A stretch of DNA of 64,000 bases from IMG/VR virus record IMGVR_UViG_3300021399_000099, positions 152,911 to 216,910 of that record; one strand, given 5' to 3'. The stretch comes from a virus. Taxonomy: Duplodnaviria > Caudoviricetes. The notes under the pieces are model-generated. The model saw nothing but the letters and a program-made list of their open reading frames with translations, had not been told where the DNA came from and ran no database searches. How positions within the stretch are numbered: the stretch's first letter is position 1; the number at the start of each line of letters is the position of its first letter. A program made the translations under genes and the position numbers. Shown in pieces: positions 7,466-29,665 of the stretch.

Positions 7466-7664
7466 AATTCTTAATATTTGCCGTTTATCCTATTTTAAAA
7501 AGTTCTTTCCACCCAAAAATTGTAAGTTCCAGTCCTTCCGCATGAACTATATTACTTGAAAACTGACATAATGTGGCATTGTAATCCAATGAGTCGTAGT
7601 CGGCGAAAAAATGCTCATTTATCGTTCCGTCTTTCCGGGTTATTCTCAGCTTATACATGACTTA

Positions 7665-7982
7665 TTAAATATTTTTAAAATCATCTTCCGGACCATCCCA
7701 GGGAATAGTGCCGATGACATATTGCCCGAACATATTCCAACCATCCGGCAAAATCATAAACTCCCAGGGATTATTCTGCTCGGCCTTGGTAATTTCATCC
7801 CGGATAGCTTTTTCTTTCTTCCTTTTAGCCTCCAGTTTATCCAGTCGGGCTTTTTCCTCCCTGGCACGCTGTCTTGCTTCATCTTCTTCTACCATCTTAC
7901 GCCACCTTGCCTCGCGTTCCATTTCTTCTCTGAGCTCCTTCTCGCTTTTCTCCCTTATGTGAATGAAAATAGGTATAATCAT
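7665..7982 (-). CDS. Hypothetical coiled-coil protein
   Basis: 105 aa, charged helix. Confidence 0.55.
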   Translation of the reverse strand: MIIPIFIHIREKSEKELREEMEREARWRKMVEEDEARQRAREEKARLDKLEAKRKKEKAIRDEITKAEQNNPWEFMILPDGWNMFGQYVIGTIPWDGPEDDFKNI

Positions 7983-7994
7983 AATATAATCAGT

Positions 7995-8285
7995 TTAAAG
8001 TACGTAAGTGCAGGACCAATCAAATAGTCCCTTTTCTTCGTCAAAATGTACGAAAAGACCGACTTCCTTTCCGTCAATTGTAATTGGACCAGCATCGTCT
8101 GAATTCCAAATCAACACTGAATCATCAAGTCTGGTAGCATCTTCCCATGCACCAAGGTTTTTTACTTCATTATAGAAGTCTTCCCCTTTGTAGATAAAAC
8201 CATTCTTGATTTTTTCAATCACCCCGGTTATTTCTTCCGGGGTGAGTTTGCACCATTGAAGGGCCCCATAAATCGTTGCACTCAT
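7995..8285 (-). CDS. Hypothetical protein
   Basis: 96 aa ORF in operon. Confidence 0.55.
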   Translation of the reverse strand: MSATIYGALQWCKLTPEEITGVIEKIKNGFIYKGEDFYNEVKNLGAWEDATRLDDSVLIWNSDDAGPITIDGKEVGLFVHFDEEKGLFDWSCTYVL

Positions 8286-9438: not shown

Positions 9439-9525
9439 AACGTAATCCTTTTTACATAATATAATACAAAAACTGTGCCAAAAAACAAAAATGACAGCAA
9501 AAAGTGAAAAATTTGCTGTCATTTG

Positions 9526-9597
9526 TGCCAGATACAGGATTCGAACCCGCATATCAACGTTTTAGGGACGCCCGCTTTACCAATCAGCTAATCTGGC
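9526..9597 (-). tRNA. Candidate amber suppressor tRNA (anticodon CUA, C33)
   Basis: Full cloverleaf GCCAGAT/ATCTGGC; anticodon arm GGCGT-CCCTAAA-ACGTT; TTCGAAT T-loop. Confidence 0.7.
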
Positions 9598-18591: not shown

Positions 18592-18961
18592 TGGAGCTGA
18601 CGCGACTCGAACGCGTGTCTTCAGGCATACCAATACGCTTTCTACATGCTTATTTCGGCTTAAAATCCAATAATCAAGAGCCGAGCACAACTTGATTATC
18701 TTTCTGAATCCAATCTTCCAGACCACTTTGTTTGCAATTACACTCCCATTGGGACGGATAACAAAGAAAACAGTCCCGAGAATGTTCGTCCCGACCCTGC
18801 CTTGGGGCCGATGGATTAAGCTAACTCACCTGGTGAATTAAGCAGCGAAAGAATACGCATAAGCGTCAACTATTTTTTTGAAGTTCTGATTAAAGTGGTT
18901 TCCTCCAATCCACTGCATGCTTACGGACCGCATATATCTGAATCAAAACCAGAACAGCCCC
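18592..18961 (-). ncRNA. ssrA: tmRNA, tag (A)DAYAYSFAA*
   Basis: 5' GGGGCTG / 3' CAGCTCC-A with G3:U70; T-arm; AAAAATAGTT|GAC GCT TAT GCG TAT TCT TTC GCT GCT TAA. Confidence 0.95.
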
Positions 18962-20919: not shown

Positions 20920-21042
20920 TGCTGAGAGTTGGATTCGAACCAACGCGTGTCAATTCCGTCGCACCAGAATTGTGATAGCGGGCTTCCCCATAGTTGCGAT
21001 TCCGGGGTCCTCCGCTGTGTTCAGCCACTTCACTACCTCAGC
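20920..21042 (-). tRNA. tRNA-like RNA with elongated anticodon and variable arms
   Basis: GCTGAGG/TCTCAGC; normal D and T arms. Confidence 0.5.
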
Positions 21043-21576: not shown

Positions 21577-22677
21577 TTAGTTAGCAGGGGTGCAAGGATT
21601 CAAACCCTGACCAACGGTTTTTAGTATTTCCGGCATATATTTCTTAATGAAATCCATAAGCGTTTGTCTGTTAATACCGGTAGTTTTACTTAATTTAGTT
21701 AGCCACCCTCTTTCACTAGTATCTATTCCCGCCTCTACTATTATTTTTTTTCTATTTCTTATTTTTTCTTTATCTTCTTCCTTTTTTTTAATTTGGCTAT
21801 CTTTTCTCCTCTTTACTGACTCAATAGCCTTTTCTTTCGTATAACAAGTTGCATAAAAATCTGGGTCGTTTTTCATTAAAAATTCCCTAACATGTAATTG
21901 GGTCATTCCAACCAATTCGCCAGCTTTCTTTACCCACCCCCATTTTTGAAAATCTATCCCACTATTTTTTATAGTTTCAAGTTTTTCGGTTGTTGTTTTT
22001 ATTTTTTCCTCTTCTTTTTGAATTTTTTTATTTAGCTTTTCTTCAACCTCTTTTATTATTTCCTTTGCTGTTCTTTTCTTTGCATTTTTCCCGCAATAGT
22101 TATCAGTTAAAGCATGACAGTTTGGGCATAAAATCTGTAGGTTTTCAATAGAATTGTTGGTTCTGTCTCCGTCTATGTGATGAACTTGTAGTGGTATCGG
22201 TTCCCCTTCCCATTCAACTCTTCCACATCTTTCGCACACCCTTTCTTTAATCCCAAACTTAAACAAGTAACCAGATATTCTGCTACTTGATATTAAGCTT
22301 TCCTTTTTAAAAATATCTTCTTCTTTTAAAGAGTTTTTATGCTGGTTGCTTTTCCCCTTTCTATTAAAATGAGTGGTATCTAACCCATATTTTTTGGCGA
22401 TTTTTTTAAATTCTAAATATGTATTACTTCCTACACTCAAATTAAGCTCTTTTGCCACCTCTGAAAAATTGTTTTTTACTTTAATCAGTTCACAAACCGC
22501 TTTCTCCCTTTTTTCTTTTTCTTTTTGGTTTTGCGTAATGTGTTTTTGGTCTTCCATGAATTTTGGCGCAAGAACCAGTTTAATATATCTTTTATCCTCG
22601 TTTAAAATTTTAGAAATTTCTTCCCTTGTTTTTCCTTCATCATATAAGGCATATACCTTTTTCATTCGCTCGTTCAT
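21577..22677 (-). CDS. HNH homing endonuclease
   Basis: 'CERCG...LQVHHIDGDRTNNSIENLQILCPNCH'. Confidence 0.9.
   Translation of the reverse strand: MNERMKKVYALYDEGKTREEISKILNEDKRYIKLVLAPKFMEDQKHITQNQKEKEKREKAVCELIKVKNNFSEVAKELNLSVGSNTYLEFKKIAKKYGLDTTHFNRKGKSNQHKNSLKEEDIFKKESLISSSRISGYLFKFGIKERVCERCGRVEWEGEPIPLQVHHIDGDRTNNSIENLQILCPNCHALTDNYCGKNAKKRTAKEIIKEVEEKLNKKIQKEEEKIKTTTEKLETIKNSGIDFQKWGWVKKAGELVGMTQLHVREFLMKNDPDFYATCYTKEKAIESVKRRKDSQIKKKEEDKEKIRNRKKIIVEAGIDTSERGWLTKLSKTTGINRQTLMDFIKKYMPEILKTVGQGLNPCTPAN
21585..21622 (-). pseudogene. 3' half of a Trp-type tRNA embedded in the end of the HNH gene
   Basis: AAAACCGT-TGGT-CAGGG-TTTGAAT-CCTTG-CACCCCT-G. Confidence 0.6.
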
Positions 22678-26123: not shown

Positions 26124-26218
26124 TGGGCAGGGAGGGATTCGAACCCTCTTACTGCGAAGTCCGCTACGACTATTTGTTAACGCAGATTGGTTTTACAGAC
26201 CAGTGCCGTTACCTACCC
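26124..26218 (-). tRNA. tRNA-Tyr(GTA) with relocated D-arm strand, copy 1
   Basis: Only TAACGGCA between acceptor and anticodon stems; enlarged variable arm contains TAGTCGTAGCGG. Confidence 0.75.
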
Positions 26219-26231
26219 ATTTTGGTTTTTG

Positions 26232-26409
26232 CGGGGATAGCAGGGCTCGAACCTACAACCTATTGATTAAGACCCGATAAGAGGAATCGAACCTCTGTTA
26301 CCATGTGTCGTAAGACTAGGTGTCCTATACCACTAAACGATACCGAGTTGGTTAATTTCGGATAACCGCCCCGTTTCAGTCAATTGCTCTACCATTGAGC
26401 TATATCCCC
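26232..26409 (-). tRNA. tRNA-Asn(GTT) with 106 nt intron (26271-26376) containing a nested tRNA
   Basis: ATTGA-CT-G|TT-AA-TCAAT. Confidence 0.85.
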
Positions 26410-26417
26410 ATTGTTTG

Positions 26418-26501
26418 CGTTTGGTGCAGGATTCGAACCTACGGTGTTCTTCACACGGCACATTAACAGTGTGCTGCCTTAAACCACTCGGCCAACCAAA
26501 C
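26418..26501 (-). tRNA. tRNA-Asn(GTT) with long variable arm
   Basis: GCACA-CT-GTT-AA-TGTGC. Confidence 0.85.
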
Positions 26502-26508
26502 ATATTTG

Positions 26509-26587
26509 TCGCGAAGACTGGACTCGAACCAGCATCCCCCTGCCTCCTATGCAGGCCGCTTACAAAAACCAATTAGCGTACTTCGCG
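26509..26587 (-). tRNA. tRNA-Pro(AGG), A34
   Basis: CCTGC-AT-AGG-AG-GCAGG. Confidence 0.8.
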
Positions 26588-26599
26588 TTATATTTTATG

Positions 26600-26671
26600 A
26601 GCCCCTTGTCGGAATCGAACCAACATCTAGGCGTTACGAATGCCTTATAATAGCCGTTATACTAAAAGGGC
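26600..26671 (-). tRNA. tRNA-Thr(CGT)
   Basis: TT-CGT-AA loop. Confidence 0.9.
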
Positions 26672-26774
26672 ATATAATGATAACCGTAGTTGGGTTTGTC
26701 AAAGTACCTTTATCTGCCATATTCTCAAGAGCCCAACCTTGTGGCATTGATTATGTACATGCAGTTATCATTTG

Positions 26775-26847
26775 TGGCGGTAACCGGAGTCGAACCGATA
26801 TCTGGTGGGTCAAAGCCACCCATACTCAGCCTTTGTACGATACCGCT
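26775..26847 (-). tRNA. tRNA-Gln(TTG)
   Basis: GGTGG-CT-TTG-AC-CCACC. Confidence 0.85.
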
Positions 26848-26848
26848 G

Positions 26849-26922
26849 TGGACACATGTGGGATTCGAACCCCTCCTTCACAGTGCAAGTGTGAGGTGCT
26901 ACCAAGTTACACTACACGGCCC
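26849..26922 (-). tRNA. tRNA-Ala(TGC), irregular acceptor stem
   Basis: TCACA-CT-TGC-AC-TGTGA. Confidence 0.75.
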
Positions 26923-26929
26923 ATATTTG

Positions 26930-27018
26930 TGGAACTTACGGATTCGAACCGCCTGTTATCGGGTCTTCCCTCGTTATTTCACCCCGTGAGCATCCGCCCC
27001 CAACTGGCTTTAAGTCCC
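26930..27018 (-). ncRNA. Ala-acceptor (G3:U70) tRNA-like RNA lacking a canonical anticodon arm
   Basis: GGGACTTA/TAAGTTCC-A with TTCGAAT T-loop. Confidence 0.5.
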
Positions 27019-27026
27019 ATATTTTG

Positions 27027-27121
27027 TGGGAGAGGTGAGACTCGAACTCACTTACCGCGAAGGCCAATACGGCTATTTGGTGACGCGGGTTGGTTTTACA
27101 GACCAGTGCCGTTACTCTCCC
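27027..27121 (-). tRNA. tRNA-Tyr(GTA) with relocated D-arm strand, copy 2
   Basis: Same architecture as 26124-26218 with compensatory changes. Confidence 0.75.
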
Positions 27122-29487: not shown

Positions 29488-29665
29488 TACCCCCGTGCAG
29501 ATTCGAACTGCAATTAAGAGTTTAGGATTGGGTAGCGGGAATTGAACCACGCGACACACTGAGGAATTGCTTCCACCGGCTCTGACCACCTGAGCTATAC
29601 CCGATAATTTGTTTCGGTAAATTACTCCGTGTAAGACTCTGGTCCTTCCATTGAACGACAGGGGC
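29488..29665 (-). tRNA. tRNA-Arg(TCT) with 107 nt intron (29526-29632) containing a nested tRNA-like element
   Basis: AGAGT-CT-T|CT-AA-ACTCT. Confidence 0.85.

Follow-up and report, generated by a model that had tools for sequence, protein, structure and literature searches.

Comparative evidence for a pseudoknotted D helix in a phage-borne class of tyrosine tRNA genes

Introduction

The cloverleaf is, to our knowledge, regarded as nearly universal outside mitochondria. Here, we describe two tRNA-Tyr genes, named TyrA and TyrB, which lack a local D arm and whose missing D strand is located in the variable-arm loop. Both genes are encoded in a 64,000-nucleotide (nt) stretch of DNA (hereafter the window), which is the last 64 kb of the 216,910-bp IMG/VR virus record IMGVR_UViG_3300021399_000099, a record judged 61% complete. 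According to the comparative data presented below, TyrA and TyrB are likely to function as tyrosine tRNAs and to belong to a phage-borne class whose core is rewired.

The canonical class II tRNA-Tyr with a GUA anticodon is known from E. coli (tyrT/tyrU), from phages T5, SP15, and T6, and also as the ordinary tRNA-Tyr gene of one phage contig collected in this study (L003). The rewired class shares with it the GUA anticodon in a CUGUAAA loop, G1-C72, A73, the 7/5 acceptor/T arms, a T loop reading UUCGAAU, a helix where class II tRNAs have the variable arm, and the D-stem signature G10:C25 and Y11:R24, followed by A14 and GG. However, the rewired class has no D hairpin; the equivalents of positions 10 to ~19 are found in the variable-arm loop, the D helix is a 5-bp pseudoknot helix, and the 24-nt variable loop is engaged in the core.

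Allo-tRNAs retain the nested cloverleaf and its usual D hairpin and have Ser- or Leu-type identity with many anticodons, whereas the rewired class always carries GUA. According to a previous study, (8/4) tRNAs and allo-tRNAs are non-standard designs with long variable arms that occur in metagenomes and in phages (Mukai et al. 2017, PMC5389517). Their 8/4 layout is common to a second subfamily of the rewired class, while the acceptor branch of the window genes is 7/5 and lacks the 8/4 or 9/3 split of 12 bp. The D-armless mitochondrial tRNAs, such as metazoan mitochondrial tRNA-Ser and nematode mitochondrial tRNAs (review PMC7609411), also have a short connector between the acceptor and anticodon stems. 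However, those mitochondrial tRNAs have no D helix at all and depend on flexibility instead, whereas the rewired class is found in phages of bacteria, rebuilds a covarying helix, and keeps the T loop and the GG.

Segments also stand in an unusual order in tRNA genes that are permuted or split, as in Cyanidioschyzon merolae and Nanoarchaeum equitans (review PMC4033280). In those genes processing restores the cloverleaf, whereas in the rewired class the acceptor strands stand at both ends and the rearrangement is internal. Plant viral tRNA-like structures (TLS), such as that of turnip yellow mosaic virus (TYMV), and the tRNA-like domain of transfer-messenger RNA (tmRNA) illustrate that a tRNA-shaped, aminoacylatable fold is possible with a pseudoknot. 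In the plant viral structures, however, it is the acceptor arm at a genomic 3' end that the pseudoknot forms, and tmRNA has no anticodon arm, whereas the rewired RNA is a free-standing tRNA of ~95 nt with a real anticodon arm and a pseudoknotted D helix. No published description of this design was found in the literature searched, which included a review of non-canonical tRNAs and covered subscription journals thinly. The rewired class is a tRNA and not a new kind of molecule; it is the structural variant that is new.

Layout of TyrA and TyrB

The two paralogous genes and their parts are listed below.

26124..26218, minus strand: TyrA, rewired tRNA-Tyr(GUA) gene; 95 nt, no encoded CCA; 33.5 bits with the Rfam tRNA model and 103.4 bits with our own model R1
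26205..26209, minus strand: TyrA D-helix 3' strand ACGGC (equivalent of positions 22-25), right after U8 A9 and before A26; alignment columns 11-16
26194..26196, minus strand: TyrA anticodon GUA in the CUGUAAA loop
26181..26185, minus strand: TyrA variable-stem 5' strand CUGCG, pairing with 26152-26156
26166..26170, minus strand: TyrA D-helix 5' strand GUCGU in the variable-arm loop, preceded by AAAUA; alignment columns 51-55, which covary with 11-16
26161..26165, minus strand: TyrA D-loop-like sequence AGCGG (A14-like A and GG)
26152..26156, minus strand: TyrA variable-stem 3' strand CGCAG, pairing with 26181..26185
27027..27121, minus strand: TyrB, rewired tRNA-Tyr(GUA) gene, paralogue of TyrA; 95 nt; 31.4 bits (Rfam tRNA) and 100.7 bits (R1)
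27108..27112, minus strand: TyrB D-helix 3' strand ACGGC
27097..27099, minus strand: TyrB anticodon GUA
27069..27073, minus strand: TyrB D-helix 5' strand GCCGU in the variable-arm loop
27064..27068, minus strand: TyrB D-loop-like sequence AUUGG

TyrA reads GGGUAGG-UA-ACGGC-A-CUGGU-CUGUAAA-ACCAA-U-CUGCG-UUAACAAAUA-GUCGU-AGCGG-ACUU-CGCAG-UAA-GAGGG-UUCGAAU-CCCUC-CCUGCCC-A. In both genes, the acceptor stem (7 bp) is followed by UA, ACGGC, and A, and then by an anticodon stem of 5 bp whose loop is CUGUAAA (7 nt, with U33 and a purine at 37). After one nucleotide comes the variable stem, 5 bp long, which encloses a loop of 24 nt; UAA leads to the T stem, also of 5 bp, with the loop UUCGA(A/G)U (UUCRANU in general form), and the acceptor 3' strand and the discriminator A73 complete the gene. 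The connector between the acceptor and anticodon stems is only 8 nt long (UAACGGCA), and the local D hairpin that a cloverleaf has at positions 10-25 is absent. An earlier note, made from the letters of the window alone, had claimed that both genes have such a connector instead of a D arm, and that the missing half lies in an enlarged variable-arm loop; the minus-strand sequences read exactly so, with AAAUA-GUCGU-AGCGG in TyrA and AAAUA-GCCGU-AUUGG in TyrB. The GG of the TyrA AGCGG could dock on the T loop in a tertiary role. The two genes are 84% identical, and their compensatory differences in the acceptor, variable, and T stems, also claimed there, were confirmed.

Comparative test of the long-range D helix

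By our own estimate, a 5-nt complement (G-U allowed) would occur by chance in a 24-nt loop in about one sequence in seven (0.375^5 x ~20 positions), so that TyrA and TyrB are not significant alone and the case rests on comparative data. To that extent, the two genes could also be read as D-armless tRNAs or decaying pseudogenes, in which the complementarity between connector and variable loop is accidental. Single-sequence thermodynamic folding was uninformative here, because the nested folds differ between TyrA and TyrB and a pseudoknot cannot be represented, so that neither fold can show one; this, too, leaves room for an accidental pairing.

The first search pattern fixed both D strands and led to five viral contigs, which are of no use for covariation. 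The later patterns fixed the T loop together with either the anticodon loop and AAAUA or, leaving out the anticodon, AACAAAUA; the 5' D strand was given as N and the 3' D strand was absent from the pattern. Relatives were filtered by their acceptor, anticodon, and T stems, and the D pairing was not used. A descriptor search in other phages, suggested in the earlier note, thus yielded 45 distinct relatives of the same type (subfamily 1, with 21 strand combinations, MAFFT alignment A4) as well as a second subfamily.

Among the 45 subfamily-1 sequences, the 5-bp long-range helix is paired in 225/225 cells, and 4/5 pairs have changed on both sides, with 46 double-change cells. Its covariation score is 0.657 versus 0.192 for shuffles, and 0/500 shuffles reach 0.657; when the register is slid by 1-3 columns, only 16-45% of cells are paired. 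The strand pairs include ACGGC/GUCGU, ACAGC/GCUGU, AUCGC/GCGAU, ACGGA/UCCGU, and ACAUC/GGUGU, and further ones are ACGCC/GGCGU, AUCGA/UCGAU, ACAAC/GUUGU, and ACGGU/AUCGU. One relative (L148) has acceptor and T stems as in TyrB but ACGGA/UCCGU in place of ACGGC/GCCGU, which shows compensation within the very lineage to which the window belongs. The pairing of ACGGC with GYCGU, as proposed earlier, is therefore borne out by the relatives.

Covariation in the remaining helices is that of a normal tRNA. The acceptor, anticodon, and T helices are paired in 96-97% of cells, and the variable stem (helix 4) in 93%, with 4/5 pairs covarying, which leaves the long-range helix as the best-kept helix of the molecule. 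An A followed by GG after 1-4 nt is present in 45/45 relatives, although A..GG was required by the search pattern and filter. Two local hairpins within the variable loop were also considered: AGUC/GACU, which is seen in TyrA, is paired in 56% of cells and is not above shuffles, and CAA/UUG is paired in 79% of cells with zero compensatory changes.

A further pattern search led to the second subfamily, which consists of ~10 sequences with the same rewiring on a different scaffold: the acceptor stem has 8 bp, the T stem 4 bp, and the variable stem 3 bp, the connector strand is 6 nt long, and CCA is encoded. The variable loop contains the A-rich linker AAUAA, a 6-nt partner strand, and then YGG. 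Acceptor pair 8 covaries (GC in 5, UG in 4, and UA in 2). The 6-bp long-range helix takes eight different sequence pairs, all of which are complementary, and 5/6 pairs covary; the unpaired cells all come from one sequence that is shifted by one column.

The unpaired connector of a D-armless tRNA is not what these alignments contain, since the connector pairs with the variable-loop strand in every subfamily-1 cell and changes in a compensatory manner. An accidental pairing would also have to take eight different sequences in the second subfamily, while the local alternatives in the loop fail, and decay is excluded because every stem covaries. A D-armless tRNA or pseudogene is hence the least probable reading, and in our view it is already refuted by covariation. 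In comparative terms, the D helix is shown to be built from a distant strand of the same molecule and to be under selection, like the other helices and the tyrosine identity elements. The internally rearranged, pseudoknotted fold put forward in the earlier note is strongly supported by the subfamily-1 covariation together with the unrelated 6-bp helix sequences of subfamily 2.

Proposed fold and strand order

In the proposed fold, the acceptor/T arm and the anticodon arm are ordinary, while the D helix is no hairpin. The D 3' strand ACGGC comes right after U8-A9 and continues into A26 and the anticodon stem; the D 5' strand GYCGU, with the A14-like A and GG behind it, is located in the variable-arm loop, and the two strands pair over ~35 nt. 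The resulting strand order (D3', V5', D5', V3') is that of a pseudoknot.

Canonical tRNA has a U8-A14-A21 triple as well as contacts of positions 9 and 10 with the variable-region positions 45 and 46, and its D-loop position 20 is near the base of a long variable arm. The new junction from 8/9 to 21/22 would match the U8-A14-A21 triple; that from the variable region to position 10 would match the 45-10-25 and 9-12-23 triples; and the one from 19/20 back to the variable arm would agree with the stacking of class II D-loop position 20 on the variable arm. Since the residues brought together at each new junction lie side by side in the canonical fold as well, the changed connectivity is compatible with the usual L shape, and we infer that the rewired RNA can preserve the L-shaped three-dimensional fold.

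Alternatively, the gene might encode a precursor that is rearranged by processing, in which the variable-arm segment is cut out and religated, or removed, to give a mature tRNA of canonical order or a D-armless one, and the pairing serves as a processing guide. Permuted, split, and intron-bearing tRNA genes do exist (review PMC4033280), and the same array contains several tRNAs with large insertions. However, a canonical order would take two cuts and two ligations, with an internal segment moved upstream. We know of no pathway for such a move. In addition, the flanking variable stem is a plain 4-5-bp helix, and no conserved bulge-helix-bulge-like feature was seen in the alignment. The transposed strand also keeps the mature signatures G10:C25, Y11:R24, A14, and GG, which are sensible only within the final fold.

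Assembled contigs from rumen RNA libraries (metatranscriptomes), which derive from related strains, cover TyrB whole and TyrA partly; they were not counted as expression support, and their collinearity with the TyrB gene is a weak point against rearrangement. Altogether, a rearranged precursor is very improbable, and the evidence points to a mature molecule that would keep the new strand order.

Tyrosine identity

GUA, A73, G1-C72, and a long variable arm are the textbook identity set for bacterial tyrosyl-tRNA synthetase (TyrRS). In the rewired class, the anticodon is GUA in all members, and G1-C72 is present in 44/45 and A73 in 45/45 subfamily-1 sequences. The features of a bacterial-type tRNA-Tyr (GUA, A73, G1-C72, and a variable-arm helix) are thus all found; the helix is kept at 4-5 bp, and its loop is not free. 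The loop strand keeps the canonical D-arm signature, in which G10:C25, Y11:R24, and A14 are followed by GG at the distance of G18/G19. No anticodon other than GUA was found among the members obtained from the pattern without anticodon constraint, although the loci were mostly fetched with Tyr-biased patterns. Furthermore, with a generic descriptor, all matches with a long-range helix of at least 5 bp have GUA. On these sequence features, the class is shown to be specific for tyrosine.

The RNA would be processed like its array neighbours, be charged by the host TyrRS, and decode UAY codons. Charging by the host TyrRS is proposed because the class retains G1-C72, A73, GUA, and A37, together with a variable stem placed as in class II tRNAs. 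Neither a TyrRS gene nor a stand-alone TyrRS C-terminal domain was found in the 217-kb record (61% of the genome), and therefore the host enzyme would charge the RNA. The rewired RNAs are most likely working tRNA-Tyr molecules charged by the host enzyme.

Distribution and genomic neighbours

Members of the class sit in tRNA clusters of phage contigs of 12 kb to ~500 kb, and the samples come from human, ruminant, and rodent gut as well as other metagenome projects. A BLAST search of the members against 50,697 phage records, a method that is weak on 90-nt RNAs, retrieved Bajarodcaudo virus 1 and RHph_N3_2 only. With the same weakness, a search of 72,556 plasmids gave no match, an absence that means little. 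In a scan of 185,579 prokaryote species (one genome each, subfamily-1 pattern), only two contigs of metagenome-assembled genomes were found, both with the same phage-like tRNA array including the rewired Tyr gene. These contigs, L122 (CAMJOB010000004.1) and L123 (CAMJMP010000002.1), come from the same study and are labelled Firmicutes and Tenericutes; they probably represent a misbinned phage contig.

Bajarodcaudo virus 1 (complete, 98.6 kb) encodes 12 ordinary tRNAs, none of which is Tyr, and its rewired gene lies inside the cluster as the sole Tyr gene among 13. In the window's record, ARAGORN found no ordinary tRNA-Tyr anywhere besides one weak, atypical GUA tRNA:

17103-17174, minus strand: weak GUA tRNA (ARAGORN); 72 nt, class I, G33 instead of U33, A1.A72 mismatch, discriminator C, 34.6 bits

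The statement of the earlier note that TyrA and TyrB are the only clear Tyr genes in the window is therefore fair, but not to be taken literally. The rewired genes are shown to fill the Tyr slot both in Bajarodcaudo virus 1 and in the window's record.

Other loci differ. An ordinary tRNA-Tyr adjoins the rewired gene in three contigs (L003, L115, and L118), and in L003 the two genes have an identical T arm. In L118, a short open reading frame (ORF) is found between them:

7735-7965 of L118, minus strand: 76-aa ORF between the rewired tRNA-Tyr (7975-8060) and the ordinary tRNA-Tyr (7633-7718)

The ORF is a stand-alone S4-like RNA-binding domain of the TyrRS C-terminal type (Pfam PF22421, 35.8 bits; cut-off 27), and its best PDB matches are TyrRS C-termini. 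No match to this domain was found by tblastn in the window's record or in the other collected loci. A subfamily-2 member, unannotated so far, was found in RHph_N3_2 (43 kb), a temperate Rhizobium phage available as an isolate, where the rewired gene is the only tRNA-like gene.

tRNA-Tyr nucleases and the role of the rewired RNA

Previous studies showed that the PtuAB nucleases of Septu and Retron-Eco7 cleave tRNA-Tyr in the variable loop at U47/C48 (PMC13096335, PMC12673091, PMC11555353). The tRNA-Tyr of phage SP15 is uncleaved, and its longer variable loop is required to neutralise Retron-Eco7 (PMC12673091); likewise, T5 tRNA-Tyr resists cleavage via a distinctive variable loop (PMC13096335). 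Overexpressed tRNA-Tyr was also reported to neutralise PtuAB toxicity (PMC12673091).

This last observation would also suit a non-decoding role, in which the rewired RNA mimics tRNA-Tyr and serves as a decoy for, or competitive inhibitor of, a tRNA-Tyr-specific nuclease (Septu/PtuAB-like) or another tRNA-Tyr-binding protein, and thereby spares the tRNA-Tyr of host or phage. Since an ordinary tRNA-Tyr adjoins the rewired gene in L003, L115, and L118, the latter is not needed there merely for tRNA-Tyr supply, and room is left for such a role. The RNA-binding domain encoded between the two genes of L118 points in the same direction, and the presence of a rewired gene as the only tRNA-like gene of temperate RHph_N3_2 suggests a special role beyond codon supply. 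However, a decoy for an enzyme cutting the variable arm needs no 7-bp covarying acceptor stem, A73, encoded CCA (subfamily 2), or full T loop; nor does it need the exact 7-nt anticodon loop with A37 that is seen in nearly every member, and in Bajarodcaudo virus 1 and the window's record the gene fills an otherwise empty Tyr slot. A pure decoy is thus considered unlikely.

Some observations do weigh against our preferred reading, namely a functional tyrosine tRNA with a rewired core. Besides the three loci with an adjoining ordinary tRNA-Tyr, these are the odd anticodon loops of some members (G37 in the L082 group, C33 in L079, and C37 in L076) and a C27.A43 mismatch in the anticodon stem of TyrA, TyrB, and L002. 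Moreover, AAAUA, the anticodon loop, and the T loop seem invariant partly because the search patterns demanded them.

As to the selective value of the rewired fold, the least certain part of the proposal, the remodelled variable and D regions may no longer be substrates for host nucleases that attack tRNA-Tyr. A tRNA-Tyr with its variable loop buried in the core would be a natural candidate for the same arms race, which fits the published work. A broader scenario can be offered only tentatively: phages may have redesigned tRNA topology to counter defence, with the D arm's 5' half threaded through the variable arm. The L shape and TyrRS identity would be kept, but the free variable loop and closed D loop needed by tRNA-Tyr nucleases (Septu/Retron-Eco7 PtuAB and the like) would be lost, so that the RNA would stay chargeable while the host tRNA-Tyr is destroyed. 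The design would have arisen, or been kept, on both 7/5 and 8/4 scaffolds, and would sometimes be accompanied by a stand-alone TyrRS C-terminal domain.

Detection by tRNA finders

The Rfam tRNA model (RF00005) has a gathering threshold of 29 bits, and both TyrA (33.5 bits) and TyrB (31.4 bits) lie just above it, although the match is reached only via a deletion of the D arm and a 35-nt insertion in the variable region. ARAGORN calls neither of the two genes, nor any other rewired copy that was checked. The expectation of the earlier note that standard scanners would miss such genes thus holds for ARAGORN but not for Rfam in the case of the window's copies. In the RHph_N3_2 genome, Rfam and ARAGORN found no tRNA at all, its subfamily-2 copy included.

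The tRNA array of the window

TyrA and TyrB belong to a dense minus-strand tRNA array at 9.5-30 kb of the window, in the genome of a rumen giant phage. ARAGORN gives 48 genes, including a tmRNA and a CUA-anticodon tRNA, and places all tRNA genes of the 216,910-bp record within the window; Rfam adds several tRNAs with large insertions. The source DNA is present in ruminant gut metagenomes, and proteins with BACON, BspA-type leucine-rich repeat, and DUF3575 domains point to a Bacteroidota host. The other features of the array are as follows.

9525-9597, minus strand: amber-reading tRNA with CUA anticodon
16782-16902, 20920-21042, and 29488-29665, minus strand: oversized Rfam tRNA matches of 121-178 nt, implying large insertions
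18591-18961, minus strand: phage tmRNA with the tag DAYAYSFAA
19560-20495 and 21577-22677, minus strand: GIY-YIG (SegE-like) and HNH homing-endonuclease genes within the tRNA array
26229-26409, minus strand: tRNA with an interrupted anticodon region; acceptor, D, and T arms ordinary, insertion of ~124 nt

A CUA tRNA is also present in L005, a 441-kb contig that carries a rewired Tyr gene. For the three oversized Rfam matches, ARAGORN gives no tRNA gene of such extent. The homing-endonuclease genes recall the T-even phages, in which SegB adjoins the tRNA-Tyr region (PMC13096335). The insertion of the tRNA at 26229-26409 holds a second tRNA-like unit (26271-26347), labelled '???' in ARAGORN. The outer tRNA has a close relative in the RNA-library contigs from rumen that carries, in place of the insertion, a plain 18-nt anticodon hairpin with GUU, in which 26260 is joined to 26385; this version has a depth of ~260.

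Implications

A natural, widespread tRNA class with a pseudoknotted core helix would break the cloverleaf rule, and would indicate that the L shape can be reached by another strand order. Because standard finders mostly miss the class, phage tRNA sets are under-counted, and Tyr tRNAs that seem to be missing from a phage may in fact exist. The class is also a concrete candidate for structural escape from tRNA-targeting immunity, in which tRNA-Tyr, together with its variable loop, is a documented battleground, and this unusual natural tRNA-Tyr scaffold may be of interest for genetic-code expansion work. Finally, RHph_N3_2 has been isolated and its host is named (Rhizobium phaseoli), which makes experiments on the rewired class feasible.

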